The notes under the pieces are model-generated. The model was not told the DNA's origin and made no database searches. It was given only the letters and a program-made list of their open reading frames with translations. Both the position numbers and the translations under genes were made by a program. Below, piece after piece: positions 3,759 through 61,102 of a stretch of 64,000 nt of DNA (the first letter of the stretch is position 1; each line of letters opens with the position of its first letter). This stretch comes from Ilumatobacteraceae bacterium (GTDB lineage Bacteria > Actinomycetota > Acidimicrobiia > Acidimicrobiales > Ilumatobacteraceae): the NCBI GenBank assembly GCA_049433485.1, contig JBMTEX010000001.1, positions 2,688 through 66,687 of the forward strand, read 5' to 3'.

Positions 3759-5475
<1,717 letters not shown>

Positions 5476-5506
5476 GCGCCGTTCTTCATAGAACACACTG
5501 AATTCT

Positions 5507-5547
5507 CGCCGTGGCGACCGCTTGGTCGTCACGGCGATTTTCATTTC
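5507..5547 (+). terminator. rho-independent terminator after groEL
   Basis: 13-bp stem cgccgtggcgacc / ggtcgtcacggcg (one G-U pair), loop gctt, followed by attttcatttc. Confidence 0.6.
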
Positions 5548-5622
5548 ATCCTCCGTTCACAGCTGATGACTGTTTATCTGAACGGCGATTCATTACGCTC
5601 GGAGAAGCATTAGGGGAGATGT

Positions 5623-7287
5623 ATGAAACATTCAAAACTTGTACGTGTGGCTGCACTTGTCGCGGCAACATCATTAATCACTTCTTGTGGATCTGGTTCA
5701 GAATCATCGGACACCACAGTACGTACGCGCAATGTGTCAATTCCAGTTTCGGGACTTGCGACTGTCGCACTGATTGCTGGCATTGACTCGGGAGGAACGA
5801 TACGCATATCAACTGTTCCCCTCGCGACGGCTGGAACAGTCGCATCAACAGAATTGTTCACTGACACAGGGGGATACACAACGGCAGTGACTGGCCTGGT
5901 GTACGACTCCCAAAATCGAGTCGTGTACTGGGCAACTCAGGAACTAAGAGATTTGAAGATTCGAAGTCGACAACTAGATGGCGGATCTACAAATACGTTG
6001 TACTCAATACCAAACAGTTATCCGTCTGGAGGACTCGGTCTAGACGCCGCGAACAATCGCTTGGTGTGGTCGGGTACTGAGTCCTCCACAGGAAAAATTT
6101 GGATGGGCGATACAAGTGGTACTTCGTACTCAACTTTAGTCTCAACATACAATGCAAAAGGATTGACAGTTTCAACAAACAAAATCTACGGTCTTATTGG
6201 ACTCAACATTCGCACCATTTCTATTTCCCCTTTCTCGCGTCTATTGGTGGCTTCTGGAGTTGGTGCAGACGCACACACTGTGATGACAGATGAAACAAAT
6301 TCAAAGCTCTACTATGCCAACGGATACTCAACATCTCCACAGATTTATTTGGTCAACACCGATGGGCTGAGTAGCCCGGCTATCTATACAACTCCTAGCC
6401 GTGGAGTGGTATCGCTCGCGATGCGAACGGATGGTTCAGTTGTGTGGGCCGATGGTATAGCGCCCTTGACTACTCCAACAAGTTCTGCTTCTGGAATAAG
6501 CATTGTGGATCCATTGGATCCAATGGTGTCCCGAGTCTTTTACCCATCACCTGACGTCAGGTTGACCGCTATGTGGTTGGTAGAGCAACCGTCGACGAAT
6601 GTAGAGGCTGAACTTGACGGTGATGGGCTAGTCGGTAGTGAGCACTCATGCATTGATGCATCATGGAGTAGCGATTTACCAGCACAACGATTATCAAGGT
6701 CTCCAGAAGTTGGTCGAGAATATGCATGGTATGTCGACGGAGAGGTTGTCGCCGGAGCAGGCGATCGAGTATTCGTACCCACGTCACCTGGCTCATTGAA
6801 GTGTGTTGTGACTGCATCAAACCTTGCCGGTTCTACAAGTTCAGAATCCTTGGAAGTTGCTGTTGCAGATCCACCGTCAACAACACCATCAACACCGTCA
6901 ACAACACCATCATCATCAAGCGTCGTCACAACTGTTCCTAGTTCAAGTGAGACAGACGGGGGATCACTTTCAGGAGGAGGTGCTTCGCCTGTGGTTACCA
7001 GTCCAACAACAACGGTGGCTCCTCGATACAAGTCCATTTCAGTGAAGTGGAGTTACAACTCTTCAAGGAAACTCTTGACAGGTACGTTCAAGAAAGTGTC
7101 AGGTGCTCGCACGTACAGCATGACGATGACAGGTGCTACGAAGAAGACTGTGAAGTGCGCAACTTCTCGAACAAGAGTGACGTGTAAGGCAACTTTGAAG
7201 AAGGGCGTCAACGTCATTACTGTGAATGCGAAGAATGCATCGAAGGTCATCATCGCTCAGAAGAGGGCGTCTAAGACCGTCAGATAA
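5623..7287 (+). CDS. lipoprotein with YWTD-like beta-propeller repeats, PST linker and Lys-rich C-terminal domain
   Basis: Lipobox LITSCG. Recurring VYWAT / LVWSG / LYYAN / VVWAD motifs at roughly 45-aa spacing resemble LDL-receptor class B propeller blades. The PPSTTPSTPSTTPSSSS linker is followed by a basic C-terminal roughly 90 aa. Confidence 0.6.
   Translation: MKHSKLVRVAALVAATSLITSCGSGSESSDTTVRTRNVSIPVSGLATVALIAGIDSGGTIRISTVPLATAGTVASTELFTDTGGYTTAVTGLVYDSQNRVVYWATQELRDLKIRSRQLDGGSTNTLYSIPNSYPSGGLGLDAANNRLVWSGTESSTGKIWMGDTSGTSYSTLVSTYNAKGLTVSTNKIYGLIGLNIRTISISPFSRLLVASGVGADAHTVMTDETNSKLYYANGYSTSPQIYLVNTDGLSSPAIYTTPSRGVVSLAMRTDGSVVWADGIAPLTTPTSSASGISIVDPLDPMVSRVFYPSPDVRLTAMWLVEQPSTNVEAELDGDGLVGSEHSCIDASWSSDLPAQRLSRSPEVGREYAWYVDGEVVAGAGDRVFVPTSPGSLKCVVTASNLAGSTSSESLEVAVADPPSTTPSTPSTTPSSSSVVTTVPSSSETDGGSLSGGGASPVVTSPTTTVAPRYKSISVKWSYNSSRKLLTGTFKKVSGARTYSMTMTGATKKTVKCATSRTRVTCKATLKKGVNVITVNAKNASKVIIAQKRASKTVR
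6874..6912 (+). repeat. two copies of an 18-nt identical core at 21-nt period inside the PST linker
   Basis: ccgtcaacaacaccatca occurs at 6874-6891 and again at 6895-6912. Confidence 0.8.
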
Positions 7288-46905: not shown

Positions 46906-48099
46906 TTATGGAACAGGAACCCAGCGCCAGTCGAGTTTGCAGATGGTGGGATCCACAATTTCCACGATGGACAATCCGATTACTGACGCACGCGCAGAAA
47001 GACCAGTTTCAGGACGAATAGCTGCGTGCGCTGGTGCCTGTTGACTAGCGCGCAACAAAATCTCTTGGGTGTTCGTTGCGTAATTGCCGAGCTGAGATGC
47101 GATGGCGAATGAATGGCGAGCGGCAATGAGGCTCTCAAGTCGGAAACGGCGCCACTGGTTGTACGACGGGGACATGTACTGAGTGAGAATCTCCGTGACC
47201 ATGGCGCGTTGATCTGTAGTTGTGAATACTTGAGACCAACTCTTGCCGTCATTTGCAAGTTGCGGCGGAAAGAGAACCTCTAGACAATCCGCTACGAGAG
47301 CATCTTTATTCTCGTACAAGCCGTAGATAGCTCCGACGCTGACACCTGCGCGACGTGCAATGCGAGACACGGTGGCGCGATGAATACCGGAGCGTGCGAT
47401 GACGTATTCGCTTGCTGAAATGAGAGCATCTCGGATGTCATCGCGCGTGGACGGAAATGCGTAAGGGGGTGGAGAAATATTTACTCCAGTTGGCTTTGTT
47501 GGTTTCGATGCCGTGCGAACAGCTTTGGTGAACATCTCCAACAGTGCAGCTGGATTAATCGGGTTGACGTCGCCTTGTTCGTACACCGAATTCAGTAACG
47601 CTGCACCAAACAGAGTTGCAAGTGCCGATACAACAGCTTGTCTGTTGGCGCCATCTGTGGATGGTCCAACGCCGCGGTCATCTAATAGACCGAGAATGTC
47701 TCGCTGCACTACTTCAGCAATGACTTCATCGCGACGTGACGCAACGATAATTTCCATTGCACTACCCAAATCGGGAACGGCATCGTGTGCACTCGCTTTT
47801 TCAAAGAGAGAACTGATGTACGCAACTTGTGATGGATCATTGTTGAGAACGGCGTCAACGAGTGGAACCAAAATCTCCGACAACATTGGCCAGAAGCTCT
47901 TCTCCCAGGCGAGGACAACTAGTTCTGAACGATCATCACATCGTGCGTAAATAACGCCACTAGAAAATCCTGCGTCTGCAGCAACTCTGGTGAGTGCCAT
48001 CTGGTCAACTCCCACCGTGCGAACAGAACGCGCTGCGCTCTCGGCAACCTTGAGGTCTGTTTGACGAGACTTGTCGGATTGGCGTGCTGTGGGGGCCAT
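46906..48099 (-). CDS. TetR-family regulator with two fused TetR modules
   Basis: Two separate HTH segments: MALTRVAADAGFSSGVIYARCDDRSEL near the N-terminus and ATVSRIARRAGVSVGAIYGLYENKDAL near residue 240. Confidence 0.7.
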   Translation of the reverse strand: MAPTARQSDKSRQTDLKVAESAARSVRTVGVDQMALTRVAADAGFSSGVIYARCDDRSELVVLAWEKSFWPMLSEILVPLVDAVLNNDPSQVAYISSLFEKASAHDAVPDLGSAMEIIVASRRDEVIAEVVQRDILGLLDDRGVGPSTDGANRQAVVSALATLFGAALLNSVYEQGDVNPINPAALLEMFTKAVRTASKPTKPTGVNISPPPYAFPSTRDDIRDALISASEYVIARSGIHRATVSRIARRAGVSVGAIYGLYENKDALVADCLEVLFPPQLANDGKSWSQVFTTTDQRAMVTEILTQYMSPSYNQWRRFRLESLIAARHSFAIASQLGNYATNTQEILLRASQQAPAHAAIRPETGLSARASVIGLSIVEIVDPTICKLDWRWVPVP

Positions 48100-52158: not shown

Positions 52159-52859
52159 GTTGGAGAATGTAACCACTCAGCAGCACAAGACTGCAAACGT
52201 TGTACAAGGGAATGGACATAGAGATGAAGAACTGTTTCTCCGTGTCGAGCAGTTGCAGTGCTGGGGTCTCCAAGGACACCCGATGGCGAAACACCTTTCA
52301 CGCCCACATGACGAAGGTCATCAATGGTGGCGGCCGATGCTTGAACTGAACTAATCAGATCTGTTCGCACAGAGTGTGGGGCAATGTGCAGCATCAGAGA
52401 TGTTTCGGTATGGCCCGCATGCATGTCGCCACCGGCATATGACGGCAGCGTCCACACTGAGTGTGTGATGTGTTCATAGTCCAACGCAGAAGTGATCATC
52501 TGCAATCCGTCGTAGTTGCCACCATGCCCGTTAACAAGCAAGACGCCTGCAGACCAGGACGCCGCCGACCTGCAGATTGACACCACCGAAGCAGATAACG
52601 CATCTGTACCTGTGCTGAGTCCGCCCACAAATCCATCGTGTTCGTCGCTGGCAGTAATGGGTAATAGTGGGGCGCGCAGAAAGTCTTCGGTGTTGATATC
52701 AGGATGATTGAACGCATCATCAACAACTCGAGAAACAATCACGCTGTCTGTGTCCAACGGGAGATGTGGCCCATGTTGCTCCCATGAACCAAGTGCTAAG
52801 ACGAGAATCTTCTTTCCATGTGGAATCTCAATGGACGTTGGTGTCCGATTGTTAATCAT
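52155..52859 (-). CDS. mftE: mycofactocin peptidase MftE (creatininase family)
   Basis: LGSWEQHGPHLPLDTD, LLVNGHGGN and MHAGHTETS creatininase metal-site motifs. ATG 52859 overlaps the dedA stop by 8 nt. Confidence 0.8.
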   Translation of the reverse strand: MINNRTPTSIEIPHGKKILVLALGSWEQHGPHLPLDTDSVIVSRVVDDAFNHPDINTEDFLRAPLLPITASDEHDGFVGGLSTGTDALSASVVSICRSAASWSAGVLLVNGHGGNYDGLQMITSALDYEHITHSVWTLPSYAGGDMHAGHTETSLMLHIAPHSVRTDLISSVQASAATIDDLRHVGVKGVSPSGVLGDPSTATARHGETVLHLYVHSLVQRLQSCAAEWLHSPT

Positions 52860-53475
52860 GGTGCGATGGCGACTTTTTCCCGCGAACGTAACGAATGATT
52901 TCAAGAATAATGGTGGCACCTATTGCCAGTGAGAATGCAACCAAGAATGCCTTGGTGTGATTGTCTTCAAATGTGCGTCCACCAATGAAGCCAAGCATGG
53001 TGGCGTACGTTGCCCAAATGGCTGCTGCAATTGCAGACCACTTCATAAACCATTTCGTTGATTGTCCAGTGATACCGCATGTGAGTGTGACGATGGTGCG
53101 ACCACCAGGCACAAAACGCGCGGTAATGAGAAGTTCGCCACCGCGGGTTTCAATTTGTTTATGCGCCCACTGCAAGCGTTGTCGACCCTTGTTGCTCTTG
53201 TTGTATCTACGTTGTAGTCGTTCCGAAAAGAACACTCCAATGTGGTAGCTGAAGTTGTCACCAGCAAATGCGCCAAGACCTGCAAAAAGAATGACGAGCG
53301 ACCAATGAAGTTCATGTAGTCCGGCCGCGACGCCACCAATGATGACCATTGTTTCGCTTGGAACGATGGGAAAGAATGAATCGAGAAATGCGATAGACAA
53401 CAGCACTACATAGAACCATGGTGAGCTGGAGTAGTCCTTCAGCCAATCAAATGCGGAATTGACAAAATCCAGCAT
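52852..53475 (-). CDS. DedA family (VTT/SNARE-associated domain) membrane protein
   Basis: FLDSFFPIVPSETMVIIGG and ITARFVPGGRT blocks are typical of DedA. ATG 53475. Confidence 0.75.
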   Translation of the reverse strand: MLDFVNSAFDWLKDYSSSPWFYVVLLSIAFLDSFFPIVPSETMVIIGGVAAGLHELHWSLVILFAGLGAFAGDNFSYHIGVFFSERLQRRYNKSNKGRQRLQWAHKQIETRGGELLITARFVPGGRTIVTLTCGITGQSTKWFMKWSAIAAAIWATYATMLGFIGGRTFEDNHTKAFLVAFSLAIGATIILEIIRYVRGKKSPSHHD

Positions 53476-53479
53476 GTGG

Positions 53480-54070
53480 TTAGTGGGCGCTACCAGTGAC
53501 TGGTGGTTCGCTTCCGCTGAGAAGTCGTTTGATATTCGAGAGGTGGCGAATCTCAATGAGTAAGCCCAGCCCAACAAATGCGAGCACTTCCCATGCGGGC
53601 TTGTCGGTGATGATCAACAACACAACAACTAGCGGGACGATAGCGATGGAGGCAATGGACGCCTTCTTCGACAACATCATGATGGCAACCCAACTCACTG
53701 CAGCAATGATCATGATGACGGGGTGCAAAGCAAGTAGAACTCCGCCGCCAGTAGCGATTCCTTTGCCACCTTTAAAACTACGAGTGACAGGGAAGATATG
53801 ACCAACGATTGCCATCGCGCCGCAGATATATGCACTGGGGCGGTGGCCAATCAGCAGGAGAGTAGGGATAGCGCCTTTGGCGGCATCAAGAACGAACACC
53901 AGCGAGCCATATTTCCAGCCAAGTGCTCGTGCAACATTGCTGGCACCTGGATTACCAGACCCAAATGAGGTGATGTCCACACCTTTTGCACGAGCGATGA
54001 CAATTGCGCTTGGCAACATGCCGAGTATGTATGCGCCGACGATTCCCAGAACAAGATTCAGAACGTTCAC
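53480..54070 (-). CDS. plsY: glycerol-3-phosphate acyltransferase PlsY
   Basis: GSGNPGASNVARALG, LDAAKGAIP and HIFPVTRSFKGGKGIATGGG motifs. The GTG at 54070 shares GTGA with the mftC stop. Confidence 0.8.
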   Translation of the reverse strand: MNVLNLVLGIVGAYILGMLPSAIVIARAKGVDITSFGSGNPGASNVARALGWKYGSLVFVLDAAKGAIPTLLLIGHRPSAYICGAMAIVGHIFPVTRSFKGGKGIATGGGVLLALHPVIMIIAAVSWVAIMMLSKKASIASIAIVPLVVVLLIITDKPAWEVLAFVGLGLLIEIRHLSNIKRLLSGSEPPVTGSAH

Positions 54071-55182
54071 GCGTTGACCTTCTTGCGTGCTGGCTTTGAG
54101 TGGTCCATTGATGGGCGAGGAAGAATGGCAACGGGCGTAGATGCCAAATATTCTTCGCCATCTCCGCCAACGCATTCGGGGTCTGGGCCATCTAGTGGGA
54201 TGCCCGTGAAGAATTTCGCCGCCATGCATCCGCCTTGGCATGCATCAAACGAGCCACATGATGCGCATGCGCCAGCGCTTTGTGGTTCGCGAAGTTCAGT
54301 GAACAGAGCAGACTCTCGCCACACTTTTGTGAAACCACCGTTGTCGAGAACCGACCCGGCCTTGAACTGATCGTGAATGACGAATGGGCAGGCGTACACA
54401 TCACCAAGTGGATCAATGAGACATACCACGCGCCCTGCTCCACACATGTTGAGGCCAGGCAATGATTCCCCGAATGCATTTAGATGGAAGAAAGAATCTC
54501 CCGTGAGTACGTTCTCACCGTGTGCCAACAACCAGTCGTAAATCTGTCGTTGTTGTGCATTGGTGGGGTGTAGTTCATTCCATGTGTCTGCACCGCGACC
54601 TGCAGGTCGCAAACGCGTGATGCGAAGTTGTGCACCATATGAATCCGCAAGGGCTTTGAAATCGTCTAGTTGATCAACGTTGTGTCGTGTAACAACAACG
54701 GAAATCTTGAATTGACCAAATCCAGCATCACGCAAGTTCTCCATAGCGCGAATAGCGGTGTCGTACGAGCCGGCGCCACGCACTGCATCGTTCACTTCTG
54801 CCGTGGTGCCGTCCAAGCTGAGTTGAATGTCGAGATAATCCAATGCTGCGAGTCGCTCGGCATTCTTCTTGTCAATGAACGCACCATTTGTTGAGAACTT
54901 CACGCCGATTCCATTTGCAATGGAATGTTCCAGAATCTCAAAGAAGTCGCGACGAACCATTGGCTCACCGCCACCGATGTTGATGTAGAAGACTTGTAAA
55001 TCTCGCAACTCGTCGAGGACAGCTTTTGCTTGTTCCGTGGAAAGTTCTCGCGGGTCTCGCTGACCGCTACTAGACAAACAGTGGACGCACTCGAGGTTGC
55101 ATGCGTATGTCAGTTCCCATGTGAGACAGATGGGCGCATCGAGGCCCGACTTCATTTGTTGAACAAGTGATTCAGCGGACAC
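54067..55182 (-). CDS. mftC: mycofactocin radical SAM maturase MftC (SPASM domain)
   Basis: GLDAPICLTWELTYACNLECVHCLSSSG is almost identical to mycobacterial MftC. C-terminal Cys-rich SPASM region (CGAGRVVC ... CPF ... CASCGSFDACQGGC). Confidence 0.92.
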   Translation of the reverse strand: MSAESLVQQMKSGLDAPICLTWELTYACNLECVHCLSSSGQRDPRELSTEQAKAVLDELRDLQVFYINIGGGEPMVRRDFFEILEHSIANGIGVKFSTNGAFIDKKNAERLAALDYLDIQLSLDGTTAEVNDAVRGAGSYDTAIRAMENLRDAGFGQFKISVVVTRHNVDQLDDFKALADSYGAQLRITRLRPAGRGADTWNELHPTNAQQRQIYDWLLAHGENVLTGDSFFHLNAFGESLPGLNMCGAGRVVCLIDPLGDVYACPFVIHDQFKAGSVLDNGGFTKVWRESALFTELREPQSAGACASCGSFDACQGGCMAAKFFTGIPLDGPDPECVGGDGEEYLASTPVAILPRPSMDHSKPARKKVNA

Positions 55183-55438
55183 GAACTATCTCCGAGCTGG
55201 TAAGCGATGAAATTGCCTTCACAAAGGCGGGCCACCGAGACTCCTCAACACCTTCTGCCACGAGAGCATCGCGCAGGCTTGGGTGAGAGGCCATTGATCG
55301 CACAACGCGAACAATGTCTGGGTGGCGAAGAAACACCAATCGACGGTTGCCGTAGTGATAGGCAAGCGCACCGAATGGTTCTGGCCGCAGTGCGACCTGG
55401 GGGTGCATCTCGCACGCCGACTCAAGGGTGAGTGTCAT
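55172..55438 (-). CDS. mftB: mycofactocin precursor chaperone MftB (PqqD/RRE family)
   Basis: The HPQVALRPEPFGALAYHYGNRRLVFL block matches MftB. ATG 55438 preferred over TTG 55486, which lies inside mftA. Confidence 0.8.
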   Translation of the reverse strand: MTLTLESACEMHPQVALRPEPFGALAYHYGNRRLVFLRHPDIVRVVRSMASHPSLRDALVAEGVEESRWPAFVKAISSLTSSEIVRVR

Positions 55439-55460
55439 AGGGGCGTGTGAGAGAGACGGA

Positions 55461-55580
55461 TCAGTAGACGCCGCACATGCCGTCAATGGAGATTTCCTCT
55501 ACGAGAAGCTCTTCCGTGACGACTGCTTCGGTGGTGTCTGTCTGGCTGTCGGCGATGTCCTGGATGTTGTCTTGTTCCAT
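55461..55580 (-). CDS. mftA: mycofactocin precursor peptide MftA
   Basis: 39 aa: MEQDNIQDIADSQTDTTEAVVTEELLVEEISIDGMCGVY. It has the invariant C-terminal IDGMCGVY and an acidic leader. It is hidden inside the 75-aa ORF 55461..55688. Confidence 0.9.
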   Translation of the reverse strand: MEQDNIQDIADSQTDTTEAVVTEELLVEEISIDGMCGVY

Positions 55581-55687
55581 ATATACGACAGTACCCGCCA
55601 CGAGCCCCACTAGAGAAGGTTGGCGCAAGATGGGTAATGTCGGAGACATCCACCGGGTCGTCTGGTGGCCAACTAAAGGGGACTTCA

Positions 55688-56803
55688 ATGAAGACCAAGG
55701 CAGCCGTTCTCTGGGAAGTTAATGCTCCATGGAGTGTGGAGGAGATTGAACTCGACGCACCAGGCCCAGGCGAGGTTCTTGTAAAGATCGCCGCATCTGG
55801 AATGTGCCACTCAGACGAGCACCTCACCACAGGCGACCTTCCATTCGCACTCCCAATTGTTGGTGGTCACGAAGGTGCTGGCGTTGTTGAGCAGGTAGGT
55901 GAAGGTGTTAGCTGGCTTGCGCCTGGCGACCATGTTGTTTTTGGCTTCATCCCATCGTGCGGACGTTGCCCCAGCTGTTCCACCGGACACCAGAACTTGT
56001 GTGACCTCGGCGCTTTGATGGGTCTCGGAATGCAAATTTCAGACGGCACATCACGTCACCATGCACAAGGCAAAGATCTCACCTTGATGTGCATGTTGGG
56101 AACGTTTGCTCACCACACAGTGGTGAATGAGGCATCCTGCATCAAGATTGAAAAAGACGTTCCACTCGACAAGGCATGTTTGCTTGGTTGTGGCGTTGTC
56201 ACCGGATGGGGTTCGGCTGTGTATGCCGCAGACGTGGCTCCTGGCGACACCGTTGTTGTCGTGGGCGTTGGCGGTATCGGTGCAAATGCAATTCAAGGTG
56301 CAAAGTTGGCTGGCGCGAAGCGCATTGTTGCTGTCGACCCCATTGAGTTCAAGCGCGAAAAGGCGATGGAATTTGGTGCAACACACACTGCATCATCAAT
56401 GGCCGAAGCCTTGCCGCTTCTGCAAGACATCACATGGGGAACTATGGCGAACAAAGTCATCATGACCATGGGTGTTGGCGATGGTCAGGTCATGGGTGAG
56501 GCAATGGCACTTGCTGCAAAGCGCGGCCGTGTTGTTGTCACCAATATTCACCCAGCTTTTGAAACTGGTGGAGCAAACATGAGTCTTCTCGATCTCACAT
56601 TGATGGAGAAGCAAGTTGTTGGTTCATTGTTTGGTTCGGGTAACCCACGCGCAGACATTCCAAAACTTCTTGGTCTGTATCGCGAAGGTCAACTCGATCT
56701 TGATGGTCTTGTCACAAAGACATACCCGCTTGAAGGTATCAACGAGGGTTACCAAGACATGCGCGACGGCAAGAACATCCGTGGCGTTTTGGTCTACGAA
56801 TAA
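55688..56803 (+). CDS. Zn-dependent alcohol dehydrogenase, NDMA-dependent / nicotinoprotein-like (mycofactocin-associated type), paralog 1
   Basis: MKTKAAVLWE, GMCHSDEH, GGHEGAG and VVGVGGIGANAIQGA motifs. SD AAGGGGA lies upstream. Divergent from mftA. Confidence 0.85.
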   Translation: MKTKAAVLWEVNAPWSVEEIELDAPGPGEVLVKIAASGMCHSDEHLTTGDLPFALPIVGGHEGAGVVEQVGEGVSWLAPGDHVVFGFIPSCGRCPSCSTGHQNLCDLGALMGLGMQISDGTSRHHAQGKDLTLMCMLGTFAHHTVVNEASCIKIEKDVPLDKACLLGCGVVTGWGSAVYAADVAPGDTVVVVGVGGIGANAIQGAKLAGAKRIVAVDPIEFKREKAMEFGATHTASSMAEALPLLQDITWGTMANKVIMTMGVGDGQVMGEAMALAAKRGRVVVTNIHPAFETGGANMSLLDLTLMEKQVVGSLFGSGNPRADIPKLLGLYREGQLDLDGLVTKTYPLEGINEGYQDMRDGKNIRGVLVYE

Positions 56804-56842
56804 TCTCAACTCATAATAAGAAATTTCTCAGAGGGGGAAGAA

Positions 56843-57994
56843 ATGAAATCACGAGCAGCAGTTCTCTACGGGCTTGATCAACCTTGGGTTGTAGAAGAAA
56901 TTGAAGTTGATGAGCCCAAAGCCAATGAAGTATTGGTGAATTGGAAAGTGGCAGGCATGTGCCACTCAGACGAACACTTCGTGACTGGCGACATGGTTCC
57001 ACCAAAGGAATTGCTCGCCATGATGGGTGTTGACGATTTCTTCCCATTCATTGGCGGCCACGAAGGTGCTGGAGTTGTTGTGAAGTGCGGCCCCGGTGTT
57101 ACTTCATTGCAGCCCGGTGATCACGTGTCGGCAAGTTTTGTTCCATCATGTGGACGGTGCCGTTATTGCTCAACAGGTCGACAGAACTTGTGCAACATGG
57201 GCGCAGGAACTCTCACTGGTGGCATGATCACAGACGGCACGCACCGTCATCATGTGAAAGATGGTCGCCCTGTCAAGTTGATGGCAAAACTCGGAACATT
57301 CTCCGAGTACGCGACAGTTGCCGAGGCATCACTCATCAAGGTGGAGAAAGATCTTCCACTTGATTGCGTGGCACTTGTGTCATGTGGAGTTGCTACTGGT
57401 TGGGGTTCTGCAACAAATCGCGCAGATACACAACCTGGCGACACCGTTGTGGTTGTTGGCATTGGTGGCATCGGTATTAATGCAGTGCAAGGTGCCCGCA
57501 TGGCCGGTGCAAAGCGCATCATTGCAATTGATCCTGTTGAGTTCAAGCGCGAAAAGGCAATGGAAATGGGTGCAACGCACACGTTCTCATCTATGGCTGA
57601 AGCTATTCCTCACATCAATGAACTCACGTGGGGAGAAATGGCAGATCGCGTCATTATGACCCCTGGCGTTCTGCATGGAGACATGATGGGCGAAGGCATG
57701 GCCATGGTAGGTAAAGGTGGCACATGTGTTGTCACTGCAATTTCGCCAATGCATGAAACATCTGCAGACATCAACTTGTTCCAACTTGCAATGTGGAACA
57801 AGGAAGTAAAGGGAACAATCTTTGGCAGCTTGAACCCACGTGCAGATATTCCACGCTTGTTGGACATGTATCGCGTAGGTGATTTGAAGTTGGATGAACT
57901 CATTACACGTCGGTACACATTGGATGAAATCAACGAGGGTTATCAGGCCATGCGCGATGGTTTGAATATTCGCGGCGTCATTGTTAATGACTGA
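56843..57994 (+). CDS. Zn-dependent alcohol dehydrogenase, same subfamily, paralog 2
   Basis: Alignable end to end with paralog 1 (GMCHSDEH, GGHEGAG, VVGIGGIGINAVQGA, DPVEFKREKAMEMGATHT). A 22-nt identical DNA block occurs at 56343-56364 and 57537-57558. Confidence 0.85.
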   Translation: MKSRAAVLYGLDQPWVVEEIEVDEPKANEVLVNWKVAGMCHSDEHFVTGDMVPPKELLAMMGVDDFFPFIGGHEGAGVVVKCGPGVTSLQPGDHVSASFVPSCGRCRYCSTGRQNLCNMGAGTLTGGMITDGTHRHHVKDGRPVKLMAKLGTFSEYATVAEASLIKVEKDLPLDCVALVSCGVATGWGSATNRADTQPGDTVVVVGIGGIGINAVQGARMAGAKRIIAIDPVEFKREKAMEMGATHTFSSMAEAIPHINELTWGEMADRVIMTPGVLHGDMMGEGMAMVGKGGTCVVTAISPMHETSADINLFQLAMWNKEVKGTIFGSLNPRADIPRLLDMYRVGDLKLDELITRRYTLDEINEGYQAMRDGLNIRGVIVND

Positions 57995-58916
57995 TTCTTC
58001 AGCACTACGCCAAGCGCTCTCTACGCAAGTTGTTGGTCGTCGTCGCGAACTTGAATTAGTTCTCGCTGCGCTCGCAGCCGACCGCCATGTATTGTTGGAA
58101 GGTCCACCAGGGACCGGTAAGTCGACGTTGTTGCGTGCTGTTGCACAAGGTCTGGGCATTGGTTTTGAATTCGTGGAAGGCAATGCCGAATTAACTCCGG
58201 CACGCCTTGTGGGACACTTCGACCCTGCACGAGTCCTCAACGAGGGGTACGACCCATCTGTGTTTGTTGACGGGCCATTGGTCAGTGCGCTTCGTGACGG
58301 CTCTTTGTTGTATGTAGAAGAAATCAACCGCATCCCAGAAGAAACTCTCAACGTTCTCATCACCGTGATGAGCGAAGGCGAATTGAATGTTCCACGGCTT
58401 GGACGCATAGCTGCCTCTCCAGGTTTCCGACTTGTGGCGGCAATGAATCCGTTCGATGCGGTTGGTACTGCCCGAATTTCAGGTGCGGTGTATGACCGCG
58501 TATGTCGCGTATCAATGTCGTACCAATCTGCTGACGAAGAAGCTGCAATCGTTCGACGCAATCTTGACGATGCAGATGTATCAGACGATTGGTTAAACAA
58601 AGCAGTCTCTGTGGTTCGCCGTACCCGTTCGCACTCAGATTTACGCGTAGGTTCATCGGTTCGTGGCGCGGTGGACTTTTCAAAAGTTGCTGTATCTCTT
58701 GCATCACTACGCGAACTAACCATCAACGATCCAAGTGTTGGTGTTGACGCTGCACTAGTTGCGCTGTCTGGCCGTGTACGAGTTCGAGAGGGAAGTGTGC
58801 GCACTCCTGAAGAAATAGTCACTGAAATTTGGCAAGACGTCTTCGGCAGAGTGGAAGGCGAGGGCGGCGAGGGAAAAGCTGGAGCCCCGACGAACCGGGG
58901 CACGACCTCCCCGTAA
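57987..58916 (+). CDS. MoxR-like AAA+ ATPase
   Basis: Walker A LLEGPPGTGKST, Walker B LLYVEEINR and an AAMNPFD sensor block. The ATG at 57987 overlaps the ADH2 stop by 8 nt. Confidence 0.85.
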   Translation: MTDSSALRQALSTQVVGRRRELELVLAALAADRHVLLEGPPGTGKSTLLRAVAQGLGIGFEFVEGNAELTPARLVGHFDPARVLNEGYDPSVFVDGPLVSALRDGSLLYVEEINRIPEETLNVLITVMSEGELNVPRLGRIAASPGFRLVAAMNPFDAVGTARISGAVYDRVCRVSMSYQSADEEAAIVRRNLDDADVSDDWLNKAVSVVRRTRSHSDLRVGSSVRGAVDFSKVAVSLASLRELTINDPSVGVDAALVALSGRVRVREGSVRTPEEIVTEIWQDVFGRVEGEGGEGKAGAPTNRGTTSP

Positions 58917-59842
58917 CAAAGGAAGGCGAAGACGCCGACCAAGCAGTTGCAGAAGCTGGAAAACGAACAACATCGCGTCGTGACTTGTCGCGTAATGAGA
59001 ACTTTGAACAAATCTCTCCAGAAGTTGGCGAGCTAGATGAAGCGGCACTTGACGAAGCCATGCAGAACAGTCCCGATGAAACATTGGGCTTATTAGCAGA
59101 TCTCACTGGGGCAACAGATCCGAAACTTCGCGAACTAGCAAGAAAACTTGCCGGGCGTTTGATGCTGGAGTTAGGAAATCGTGGTCGAGCGCGTCCTCGA
59201 GGGATTGGCAAAATTGTTGAACAGCCGTATCGACCAGATGGTGGCGACATTGACATTGATGCAAGTTTGGAAGCAATCACCGAATCACGTCGCGGTCACG
59301 CAATAGACCCAGAACGTTTGCGACTTCGCGGATGGCAGAAGCCAGGTACAGCGTTTTGTTTGTTGTTAGACAGAAGCGGTTCTATGGGTGGTCAACCGCT
59401 GGCAACTAATGCTGTGGCCACTGCCGCTATTGCAAGTCGGAACCCGGATGATTACAGCGTGATCGCGTTTGGCAAAGACGTAGTGGTGACGAAGAGTCAA
59501 GATGTACCGAAATCGAGCGATCGGGTCATTAACGATGTGTTGACTTTGCGTGGGCATGGCACAACAGATTTGGCCGGCGCCTTGTTAGTAGCGCGTCAAC
59601 AATTGTCTCGATCACGTGCTGGTCGAAAAGTGGCCATTTTGTTGTCTGATTGCCGTGCCACCGTGGAGGGCGATGCGGAAAATGCGGCACACGGAATGGA
59701 CGAGTTAGTGGTGATTGCCCCTGTAGACGACCACGATGAAGCAAAAGCATTTGCCGCGCGCGTTGGCGCACGCTTGGCGTTAGTAGGTGGGCCAAGCGAC
59801 ATTCCAGAGGTCTTGGCCCGTGTGTTGGAGCCAATTGCTTAG
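58829..59842 (+). CDS. VWA domain protein (MoxR partner)
   Basis: MIDAS-like LLLDRSGSMGG, TDLAGAL and LSDCRA blocks. The start is uncertain. ATG 58829 overlaps moxR by 88 nt, and the next ATG is at 59060. Confidence 0.7.
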   Translation: MARRLRQSGRRGRRGKSWSPDEPGHDLPVTKEGEDADQAVAEAGKRTTSRRDLSRNENFEQISPEVGELDEAALDEAMQNSPDETLGLLADLTGATDPKLRELARKLAGRLMLELGNRGRARPRGIGKIVEQPYRPDGGDIDIDASLEAITESRRGHAIDPERLRLRGWQKPGTAFCLLLDRSGSMGGQPLATNAVATAAIASRNPDDYSVIAFGKDVVVTKSQDVPKSSDRVINDVLTLRGHGTTDLAGALLVARQQLSRSRAGRKVAILLSDCRATVEGDAENAAHGMDELVVIAPVDDHDEAKAFAARVGARLALVGGPSDIPEVLARVLEPIA

Positions 59843-59848
59843 GTAGTT

Positions 59849-61102
59849 CTAGTACTGGCAGTTTGAGTCGTTTGGCGGCACAACGCCGCGCGTGCTTTGC
59901 TCAATTAACACCTTCGGCACTGTGGTAGTTGTAATGCTTTGTGCCGGTTTTGTTGTTGGAGTTGATTTTGAAGCAACTGTTGTAGTTGTTGCGATTGCGG
60001 CAAGAGTTGTGGTGGTGACGGTATTTGTATCTGCGGGTGACGCGCCGGAGATTGTTGACTTCAAGCTTGCCTTTCCTTGGAATACAGCCAGAATCTTTTT
60101 CGATGTTTCGCTCTCGAGGTCAGGGAGTATGACGGCCATGTCGTCTATTAACGTTCCTGTACCTGGCATGGTGTAGCTGCCCATGGTGTCGGTATTGAAG
60201 TTCTTCATTGCTTGACCAAGTTGAAGAACTGTTAATGGAGACAATTTGTCATCCGTGATGATGTTCTTCAATGCGGCATTCAAGATTCCAGAGGCAACTC
60301 GCGGATTTTTCTTTGCCTTCTCAAGCGACTTACGAATAACTCGCTTCATAAAATCTTGTTGACGACTGATGCGACCCCAATCTGATGTGCCGTCTGAAGT
60401 CCACTTCTTTGTCTTTGGATTCAACCACTGGTAATGACGCGAGCGCATATAAGCCAATGCGTGATCACCTTGGAAGGTGTAACAGACGCGAGCACGAAGA
60501 ACTTTGAATCCAGTTTTCTTGTCTCGAGCTCTGTACATGAATGGTACGCGCACCCCGCCAACGGCGTCCACAATTCCCGCAAATGCGCAAAAGTCAACGT
60601 TGATGTAGTGATCAATGGAGATTCCGAAGTTCTCTTTGATGTTTCTAATTAGTCGATTCGGATTCTTCTTTTCAAAGTTTGCATTGATGCGATTGCTGCG
60701 ATTTGATTCAGCTTGCCTCACCCACATATCTCGGGGAAATGACAAAATTGCTGCTTGGTTGTCGATGGGGTTCACTCGCACCACCATTAACGTGTCGCTT
60801 CGTTCGCCGTAGCCACTGCGATTACTGAATCCGCCATAAAAGGGTGAATCTTTGCTGATGCATGCGTTGTTGTCAGAGCCGGTGATGAGGAAGTTCTTTG
60901 CGGTGCGGTCACCCTCAGGAAGGTCAAGATTTCCATCACCCAGAGCAACCGGGTCGATGGAGACCACTTTGCGATTACCCAACTTCCAGTTGGCGTACAG
61001 GAGTCCACTTCCTGCCAGCACTGTGACAACTGCAAGCGTGATATTGAAAATCACAAAAGCGCGCTGTTTTCCTGAATGCTTGTAGCGGGGCTGGGTGGAC
61101 AT
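59849..61102 (-). CDS. LCP (LytR-CpsA-Psr) family cell-envelope phosphotransferase
   Basis: N-terminal TM anchor, NFLITGSD, RSDTLMVVRVNP and FPRDMWV blocks, plus a Thr-rich C-terminal tail. Confidence 0.85.
   Translation of the reverse strand: MSTQPRYKHSGKQRAFVIFNITLAVVTVLAGSGLLYANWKLGNRKVVSIDPVALGDGNLDLPEGDRTAKNFLITGSDNNACISKDSPFYGGFSNRSGYGERSDTLMVVRVNPIDNQAAILSFPRDMWVRQAESNRSNRINANFEKKNPNRLIRNIKENFGISIDHYINVDFCAFAGIVDAVGGVRVPFMYRARDKKTGFKVLRARVCYTFQGDHALAYMRSRHYQWLNPKTKKWTSDGTSDWGRISRQQDFMKRVIRKSLEKAKKNPRVASGILNAALKNIITDDKLSPLTVLQLGQAMKNFNTDTMGSYTMPGTGTLIDDMAVILPDLESETSKKILAVFQGKASLKSTISGASPADTNTVTTTTLAAIATTTTVASKSTPTTKPAQSITTTTVPKVLIEQSTRGVVPPNDSNCQY

Follow-up and report, generated by a model that had tools for sequence, protein, structure and literature searches.

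A probable programmed −1 frameshift joins an AAA_5 ATPase and a VWA protein beside mycofactocin-type alcohol dehydrogenase genes in an Ilumatobacteraceae genome

Mycobacteria and their relatives require mycofactocin to metabolise alcohols. To our knowledge, the published parts list of the system comprises biosynthesis genes, a regulator, MftG and client dehydrogenases, and contains no chaperone. Here, we analyzed a stretch of 64,000 nucleotides (nt), called the window below, from contig JBMTEX010000001.1 of an Ilumatobacteraceae bacterium. In this stretch, two alcohol dehydrogenase (ADH) genes lie divergent from mftA, the mycofactocin precursor gene, and are followed by a MoxR-class AAA+ ATPase gene and by a reading frame for a VWA protein with a MIDAS motif. 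The genome is a metagenome-assembled genome (MAG) of 1.85 Mb that is 86% complete, and its nearest named relatives are lake Ilumatobacteraceae (Acidimicrobiia). A preliminary description of the window had proposed that the ATPase and the VWA protein form a chaperone dedicated to mycofactocin-dependent dehydrogenases. The locus thus raises the question of whether this pair belongs to the mycofactocin system, how its two overlapping frames are translated, and on what it acts. We found that the linkage of the pair to mycofactocin enzymes is real, and that the VWA frame is very probably reached by a programmed −1 ribosomal frameshift from the ATPase gene.

Association with mycofactocin genes

The features considered here are listed by window position.

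55463..55582, minus strand: mftA, mycofactocin precursor, 39 aa, C-terminus IDGMCGVY (direct sequence reading)
55688..56803, plus strand: ADH1, 371-aa Zn-dependent alcohol dehydrogenase of the TIGR03989 clade (TIGR03989, 558.1 bits; Pfam ADH_N + ADH_zinc_N)
56843..57994, plus strand: ADH2, 383-aa paralog of ADH1, TIGR03989 clade (TIGR03989, 555.8 bits; Pfam ADH_N + ADH_zinc_N)
57987..58916, plus strand: AAA_5-type MoxR-class AAA+ ATPase, zero-frame product of 309 aa (PF07728 AAA_5, 3.8e-25)
58871..58877, plus strand: putative slippery heptamer G_GGA_AAA, zero-frame codons 296-297 of the ATPase, followed by G58878 (in-register conservation)
58884..58901, plus strand: putative stimulatory hairpin GCCCCG-ACGAAC-CGGGGC, 6 nt past the heptamer (hairpin search; comparison of minimum free energy, MFE)
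58871..59842, plus strand: VWA reading frame, −1 to the ATPase, 323 codons, from GKSWSPD... to the stop (Pfam VWA_2, VWA_CoxE and VWA)
59369..59383, plus strand: MIDAS motif D-R-S-G-S (DxSxS) (alignment of orthologs)

The four genes of the preliminary description are all present at these positions. Both ADHs exceed the curated NCBIfam cut-off of TIGR03989 (440 bits), which bears out their earlier assignment to the mycofactocin type. They share 59% identity (BLASTP). GMCHSDEH, GGHEGAG and a four-Cys cluster (C-x2-C-x2-C-x7-C) occur in both translations, and the catalytic and structural zinc ligands of the Zn-ADH fold are present in both. The ADH1 ribosome-binding site (RBS) is AAAGGGGA, ahead of the ATG, and that of ADH2 is AGAGGGGGAAG. 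ADHs of the TIGR03989 class hold a tightly bound NAD(P)H that is re-oxidised by mycofactocin; that is, they are nicotinoproteins. Haft reported that they are restricted to mycofactocin-bearing genomes and often lie close to the system (Haft 2011, PMC3023750); no ATPase or VWA protein was mentioned there for mycofactocin. The present genome agrees with this distribution: the ADHs are divergent from mftA-B-C (the mftA-ADH1 gap is 105 nt), mftE and mftF belong to the same cluster, and mftD is found elsewhere in the genome. The scores of mftB and mftC are above the cut-offs of TIGR03967 and TIGR03962, respectively.

A genome-wide search returned ADH1 and ADH2 as the sole TIGR03989 members, and no short-chain dehydrogenase/reductase (SDR) reached the TIGR03971 cut-off in this 86% complete genome. 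Besides the two ADHs, no mycofactocin-coupled dehydrogenase was recognised there. Therefore, its whole mycofactocin system appears to serve the module of ADH1, ADH2 and the AAA+/VWA proteins.

The preliminary description had staked its proposal on conservation of the linkage in other genomes. We found the ADH-ATPase-VWA arrangement in >100 genomes, which is far beyond chance. The order is kept across Acidimicrobiia, several Actinomycetes families, one Chloroflexota MAG and one Dormibacterota MAG. The ATPase is present in 55 of the 60 genomes of the same genus, and the three genes are colinear in five of the seven loci inspected from other families. To cover the phylum, we surveyed 80 named species loci across Actinomycetota. 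The VWA part is immediately downstream of the ATPase, or fused to it, in 78 of them. According to a manual recount of the neighbour table, a TIGR03989-like ADH ends at or just before the ATPase start in 62 of the 77 evaluable loci. In nine of the 77, mft genes adjoin the AAA/VWA genes and there is no ADH, with the order mftE-AAA-VWA-mftF in L093, L106, L109 and L120 and AAA-VWA-mftE-mftF in L124; the remaining six have neither.

The neighbours are not limited to Zn-ADHs. A plain SDR gene lies upstream of the ATPase in two ADH-less loci, and a mycofactocin-associated electron transfer flavoprotein (ETF) beta subunit gene does so in L094. On two Rhodococcus plasmids, the RefSeq annotation reads mycofactocin-coupled SDR, MoxR family ATPase, vWA protein. 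Fused AAA-VWA genes with a Zn-ADH gene before them occur in Alloactinosynnema, where the locus again diverges from mftA-B-C, and in two MAGs, one of Oscillochloridaceae and one of Dormibacteraeota. The mycofactocin link of the earlier proposal is thus upheld, but its restriction to ADHs is too narrow, because the pair adjoins mycofactocin-coupled SDRs and sits in ADH-less mft clusters.

The phylogenetic profiles point in the same direction. We searched 401 high-quality Actinomycetota genomes, with E ≤ 1e-50 as the threshold for a close homolog. The ATPase occurs in 29 of the 46 mftC-positive genomes versus 3 of the 355 mftC-negative genomes. Because the genomes are related, no p-value is given; at least ten families contribute. 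At the level of the order, an ATPase ortholog is found in 7/9 mftC-positive and 0/31 mftC-negative genomes from 40 other families.

Such a distribution, nested in mftC-positive genomes, could also be read to mean that the AAA+/VWA proteins act on mycofactocin itself, that is, on its biosynthesis, trafficking or loading, for example in place of a missing biosynthetic step. The nine mft-adjacent loci with no ADH would fit this idea, but one of them (L112) has a mycofactocin-coupled SDR gene directly upstream (TIGR04504, 323 bits; cut-off 250). A dehydrogenase gene is by far the commonest neighbour of the AAA/VWA genes, often with overlapping stop and start, and the ATPase gene is absent from many mftC-positive genomes. 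Nor is a step missing here. The mftD gene, absent from the mft cluster of the window, lies on contig C26:7321-8469 (locus L142:4801-5976, minus strand), scores 705 bits for TIGR03966 (cut-off 471) and stands alone, flanked by a haloalkane-dehalogenase-like gene and a HAD phosphatase gene; we rejected the AAA/VWA pair as a substitute for MftD on this basis. An mftD above the cut-off was present in 53 of the 101 genomes searched, mostly of the same genus, and carriers of the ATPase are known both with and without it. Reconstitution of mycofactocin biosynthesis is reported to need no proteins other than those of the Mft set. We consider an action on mycofactocin itself unlikely, and the dehydrogenases are the better candidates for the clients of the pair.

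The junction between the ATPase and VWA frames

The ATPase start codon (ATG 57987) overlaps the ADH2 stop codon (TGA 57992-57994) by 8 nt within ATGACTGA, as had been described. The ATPase carries an AAA_5 domain (PF07728, 89 bits; cut-off 22), and its AAA_3 and bpMoxR matches are weaker. Walker A (GPPGTGKST), Walker B (LLYVEEINR), sensor and Arg-finger motifs are present, and 10 diverse orthologs, 56-76% identical to the window ATPase, show no variation in GPPGTGKST, LLYVEEINR, AAMNP or GSSVRGA. The closest solved chains by sequence are the midasin AAA modules, then NorQ, CbbQ, MoxR 2r44 and CobS. In the NCBIfam search, none of the named equivalogs (NorQ, CbbQ, GvpN, CoxD, RavA, MoxR proper) was reached; the top match was GvpN with 78 bits against a cut-off of 267, and the rest were far under their cut-offs. 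Judged by its sequence, the ATPase is a member of an unnamed clade in the AAA_5, or NorQ-CbbQ-midasin, branch of the MoxR class. The earlier name of MoxR-like ATPase is correct for the class in the broad sense, but the protein is not MoxR proper.

Two domains are encoded in the VWA frame, a helical N-domain at about residues 20-102 and a VWA/MIDAS domain at about residues 113-320. Further MIDAS residues are a Thr at about 59564 and an Asp at about 59648; counted with the G of GKS as the first residue, D167, S169, S171, T232 and D260 show no variation across an alignment of 49 orthologs. The AF2 model built from this alignment (pLDDT 91, pTM 0.84) has a helical N-domain followed by a VWA fold. 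Searched with Foldseek, the model matched best the NorD VWA in the 2026 NorQD complexes and the MIDAS domain of Rea1/midasin; the sequence-level PDB search with the VWA frame gave no match. The ATPase and VWA pair is an unnamed NorQ/NorD-like clade.

How is the VWA frame translated? The preliminary description had treated it as an ordinary gene with its own start. The MIDAS-bearing VWA protein is indeed there, but its frame is −1 to the ATPase and opens at a probable frameshift signal. The heptamer is 43 nt ahead of the ATPase stop codon (58914-58916). An identical heptamer in the same register was found in 41/41 split loci, which come from the same genus and six other families (ATPase identity 56-99%), and the flanks of the heptamer diverge across these loci. 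The locus from a seventh other family, L049, has both parts in one open reading frame (ORF) of 679 aa and no heptamer. Among the 80 species loci, the VWA frame is −1 in 75, in frame in two and +1 in one, and two have no VWA match. The heptamer is G_GGA_AAA in 58 loci, G_GGG_GAA in 12, G_GGG_GGA in three, A_AAA_AAA in one and C_CCA_AAA in one. The variants take the position of G_GGA_AAA and are each accompanied by a separate GC hairpin. The G-rich ones mostly lie 10-13 nt ahead of the ATPase TGA, and their hairpins are often of the type GCCCGCC-nnn-GGCGGGC.

We also investigated the sequence downstream of the heptamer. As loop lengths differ, the MAFFT alignment was ungapped and unfit for RNAalifold, and an anchored hairpin search with in-locus controls was used instead. 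The set contained 99 heptamer-bearing loci, of which 87 distinct sequences were used for the hairpin test. A hairpin of at least five G-C pairs starting 3-9 nt past the heptamer was found in 87/87 distinct sequences versus 9% of in-locus control positions. There were 29 different hairpin arm pairs, and therefore both arms change together. The MFE downstream of the heptamer is lower than the gene background.

The codons at the site and the conceptual fusion product agree with this signal. GGG-AAA is used at the site in the VWA frame in 99/99 loci, whereas AAA accounts for 35% of Lys codons and GGG for 17% of Gly codons elsewhere in the same genes. Conservation of the VWA-frame peptide starts exactly at GKS (GGG AAA AGC). 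Joining ATPase codons 1-297 to the VWA frame gives a conceptual fusion of 618 aa, and natural homologs with a single ORF (608-668 aa) are colinear with it in alignment. When this fusion was used as query, >2,000 proteins were returned at E ≤ 1e-30, and nearly all of the best 120 are about 600-660 aa long. Proteins from named strains or species are among them, including those of Alloactinosynnema, Pseudonocardia and Blastococcus.

Against a frameshift, one can suppose an ordinary two-gene MoxR/VWA pair, in which the VWA frame is initiated independently, at TTG 58829 or at a downstream TTG or ATG, in translational coupling with the ATPase, and the heptamer is kept through the Gly-Lys that it encodes in both frames. 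Several observations weigh on this side. TTG 58829, 42 nt upstream of the heptamer, is the sole start candidate for the VWA frame in the window; it is weak and most relatives have no such TTG, so independent initiation is possible for the window genome alone. Some upstream start codon exists in 37 of 95 loci, and RefSeq gives related Rhodococcus loci two separate genes. The motif GK[SG]xSP recurs in some in-frame fusions, so that selection on the protein may account for some of its conservation. However, in the other 58 of the 95 loci the −1 ORF has no ATG, GTG or TTG ahead of the heptamer, and in several loci a −1-frame stop directly abuts it. Among the 58, the first downstream start is past the conserved TTSRRxL motif in 38; starts of this kind would cut off a conserved N-terminal segment, of which residues 11-110 are confidently folded in the AF2 model. 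The invariant codon choice, the hairpin with covarying arms at canonical spacing and the single-ORF fusions common among relatives speak against independent initiation as well, and it leaves the family-wide pattern unexplained. We judge it improbable.

The junction thus combines an in-register heptamer, a conserved covarying downstream structure and a downstream frame that mostly has no start. Because of the heptamer, the hairpin, the missing starts, the codon constraint and the natural fusions, we read the VWA frame, with high confidence for a reading taken from sequence, as programmed by a −1 frameshift. Translating ribosomes would either terminate at the ATPase stop codon, giving the 309-aa AAA_5 ATPase, or slip back by one base on G_GGA_AAA, aided by the GC hairpin, and continue in the −1 frame to an ATPase-linker-VWA(MIDAS) fusion of about 618 aa.

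A purine-rich stretch resembling a Shine-Dalgarno (SD) sequence, GAAGGCGAGGGCGGCGA, lies just upstream of the heptamer (window 58830-58870). Only 44 of the 99 loci have a similar SD-like pentamer at a distance of 4-20 nt ahead of the heptamer; therefore, it is no consistent component of the signal.

Variant relatives and surrounding genes

Some relatives differ from the split form in other ways. Two MAG loci, L114 and L128, seem to be in-frame fusions; their sample-name prefix suggests long-read assemblies, and these fusions could be homopolymer errors. The argument from fusions rests on the other fused proteins. On the Rhodococcus plasmids NZ_AP023173 (L135:5700-6000) and NZ_CP145320 (L136:5800-6100), the VWA part is in the ATPase frame, with a single TGA between them (...CCC GGT TGA AGA GC...). 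Both plasmids keep the peptide KPLRRxPKxLTExP behind this TGA, and in L136 it is upstream of the annotated VWA start. Here, read-through of the stop codon may serve the same logic of motor and motor-adaptor.

Additional copies were observed in two genomes. In the Oscillochloridaceae MAG (Chloroflexota; L139:1-1936 and 5001-6899), two fused AAA-VWA paralogs flank an mftB-mftC fusion gene and a Zn-ADH gene, and two OYE-type flavoproteins and an ETF come after. An Actinomycetota genome (G185:C1:1779523-1781282) has two tandem ATPase homologs and a third copy elsewhere. The open frames around two of its three ATPase matches span 664 and 723 codons, a length suggestive of fused forms.

On the minus strand of the window, the order is mftA, mftB, mftC, plsY-like, dedA-like, mftE and mftF. 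The plsY-like and dedA-like genes encode membrane proteins and lie between mftC and mftE (52852-54241); plsY is kept there in most of the inspected relatives of the genus and family, and dedA in some. On the plus strand, ADH1, ADH2, the ATPase and the VWA frame are followed, 6 nt on, by a convergent LCP-family gene. A promoter and terminator scan of 55300-60200 gave nothing exceeding shuffled expectation. Farther away, a 397-aa protein (window 46906-48099) has two TetR-type helix-turn-helix (HTH) regions at about residues 9-68 and 219-308, and it looks like a fused double TetR.

Candidate function of the module

We propose that ADH1, ADH2 and the AAA+/VWA proteins would form one operon-like module of the mycofactocin system. 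By homology to NorQ/NorD, CbbQ/CbbO and midasin, a hexameric ring of the ATPase would hold the VWA part. The MIDAS site and the N-domain may serve as an adaptor that grips the client, and ATP hydrolysis would shift the adaptor and so remodel the client. From gene context and phylogenetic profile, the clients would be mycofactocin-dependent nicotinoprotein dehydrogenases, namely TIGR03989 ADHs here and mycofactocin-coupled SDRs elsewhere. The likely job would be maturation or reactivation, with loading or exchange of the non-dissociating NAD(P)(H), of the active-site metal, or of both. As a whole, this explanation by module, recoding and client remodelling seems to us reasonably probable. For the function as such, that the AAA/VWA proteins remodel or mature mycofactocin-dependent dehydrogenases, we see the balance as tipped slightly in favour.

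NorQ/NorD and CbbQ/CbbO are the nearest models. The ATPase is of the AAA_5 type, with NorQ and CbbQ as its nearest solved bacterial homologs; the VWA model has NorD as its best fold match and keeps an intact MIDAS; and the genes stand beside the presumed client genes, as norQD stands by norCB and cbbQO by the Rubisco genes. In NorQD, the VWA protein held by the ring is moved by ATP hydrolysis and the client is remodelled (PMC13036017). There are differences, too. The clients here would be soluble mycofactocin-dependent dehydrogenases, whereas theirs are nitric oxide reductase (NOR) and Rubisco. With about 320 aa, including a small helical N-domain, the adaptor of the present system is short; it is covalently tied to the motor by frameshift or fusion, and theirs is a separate protein. 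The sequence identity of NorQ to the ATPase is low (53 bits). Midasin/Rea1 likewise carries AAA_5 modules and a MIDAS in one polypeptide, and it is the top sequence match of the ATPase (137 bits summed) and among the best fold matches of the VWA model. It is, however, a eukaryotic ribosome-assembly factor of 5000 aa with six AAA modules per chain, and the resemblance is at the domain level only.

Several observations count against the proposed function or limit it. No close ATPase homolog was found in 17 of the 46 mftC-positive genomes, one mycobacterial-looking family included, and therefore the AAA/VWA pair is no universal requirement of the mycofactocin system; in the phylum sample, the mftC-positive genomes of large size gave no close ATPase homolog at E ≤ 1e-50. 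L122, L133, L134 and one Pseudonocardia copy have neither a dehydrogenase nor an mft neighbour. The nature of the remodelling (NAD, Zn or assembly) is a guess, and the SDR clients argue against a purely zinc-related role.

Zinc deserves separate attention, since the pair could be a metal insertase that supplies the Zn-ADHs, in the manner of the chelatases, NorQD (FeB) and CoxDE (Cu). Most known MoxR/VWA pairs aid the assembly of metal centres (PMC13036017, PMC4240915), most of the neighbours are Zn-ADHs, and the M. smegmatis operon MSMEG_6240-6242 responds strongly in zur/zinc experiments (PMC7174638). On the other hand, close homologs are coupled to mycofactocin SDRs, the gene tracks mycofactocin and not Zn-ADHs at large, and Zn-ADHs in general do not need an insertase. 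Mycofactocin SDRs are metal-free. A zinc insertase is improbable to about the same degree as an independent VWA start.

The M. smegmatis operon is of interest for another reason. Its genes MSMEG_6242, MSMEG_6241 and MSMEG_6240 share their regulation (PMC7174638), the first two of them increase jointly in mft mutants (PMC8406134), and a MoxR/CoxE/ThcE operon of Rhodococcus is mentioned in passing (PMC13689224). These operons resemble the window locus in that they group an AAA ATPase and a third protein, under common regulation, with an alcohol dehydrogenase that depends on mycofactocin. The difference is that the dehydrogenase is of the Fe type (group III; Mdo, Mno or ThcE), and the ATPases were compared by description only. 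Thus the claim that a MoxR-VWA helper is undescribed needs a qualification: its function is unstudied in the papers that we found, but the adjacency has been mentioned in passing in these three. Our literature search found no paper on this AAA/VWA clade, its frameshift or its function.

Because the Zn-ADHs, the SDRs and, according to the literature, the Fe-type Mdo/Mno share a tightly bound nicotinamide cofactor and not a metal, we favour, as a guess, cofactor loading, exchange or reactivation rather than zinc insertion. A still more specific form of this idea is tentative, and we would not call it probable: the AAA+/VWA proteins may be an 'activase' that forces ADHs and SDRs of the mycofactocin-dependent kind open, so that their normally non-dissociating NAD(P)(H) can be loaded, exchanged or reset, with a frameshift frequency that provides about one adaptor-bearing subunit per hexamer. 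CbbQO, which frees inhibited Rubisco, offers a likeness for such an action. That the frameshift frequency would set the ratio of plain-motor to adaptor-bearing subunits is a speculation, by analogy with the one NorD per NorQ hexamer.

The recoding itself has a precedent in chlD, or 'magnesium chelatase', genes, for which poly-A slippery sites, proof by reporter assay and a function unknown in some hosts have been reported (Antonov et al. 2013, PMC3711429; Kuznetsov et al. 2022, PMC9227772). In frameshifted chlD (fs-chlD), too, one gene gives a short AAA+ protein and a long AAA+-linker-VWA protein through a programmed −1 frameshift with a slippery site and a downstream structure, in-frame fusions occur in relatives, and the annotation has two neighbouring genes of about 1 kb. 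The present system differs in its AAA module (AAA_5, NorQ-like, versus ChlI, PF01078), in its heptamer (G_GGA_AAA or G-rich versus poly-A), in the absence of a CobN/ChlH partner from the search results and in its mycofactocin dehydrogenase context. Hence the notion that the AAA-VWA proteins are the motor of a class I (Mg/Co) chelatase placed beside the ADHs by chance, which could draw on this layout and recoding, on the JGI label 'magnesium chelatase subunit D' of fused homologs and on weak TIGR02031 and TIGR02442 matches, is highly improbable and was rejected: the best family is AAA_5, the faint PF01078 signal is limited to ATPase residues 16-55 with no stretch above threshold alone, TIGR02031 scores 45 bits against the BchD/ChlD equivalog cut-off of 500, no CobN/ChlH (PF02514) match was found in the 86% complete genome, and neighbourhood and phylogenetic profile indicate mycofactocin. 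A match on the Thermomicrobium roseum megaplasmid was also set aside, as it is a generic MoxR-DUF58 system and not an ortholog.

The AAA/VWA pair is present in about 60% of the sampled mftC-positive Actinomycetota, nearly never without mftC, and is usually coupled to a client dehydrogenase gene. It is a candidate for an ATP-driven factor that matures or repairs dehydrogenases with tightly bound cofactors. If the activase proposal is true, it would be a missing accessory component of the mycofactocin system and could explain the difficulty of obtaining some such enzymes active outside their hosts. The frameshift would widen the principle of making a motor and a motor-adaptor from one gene from the chelatases to the NorQ/CbbQ-like branch of the MoxR ATPases. 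In genome annotation the gene appears as two, often with an arbitrary start for the VWA part. The interchangeable solutions among relatives (different heptamers, in-frame fusion and possibly stop read-through) suggest selection on the subunit ratio.

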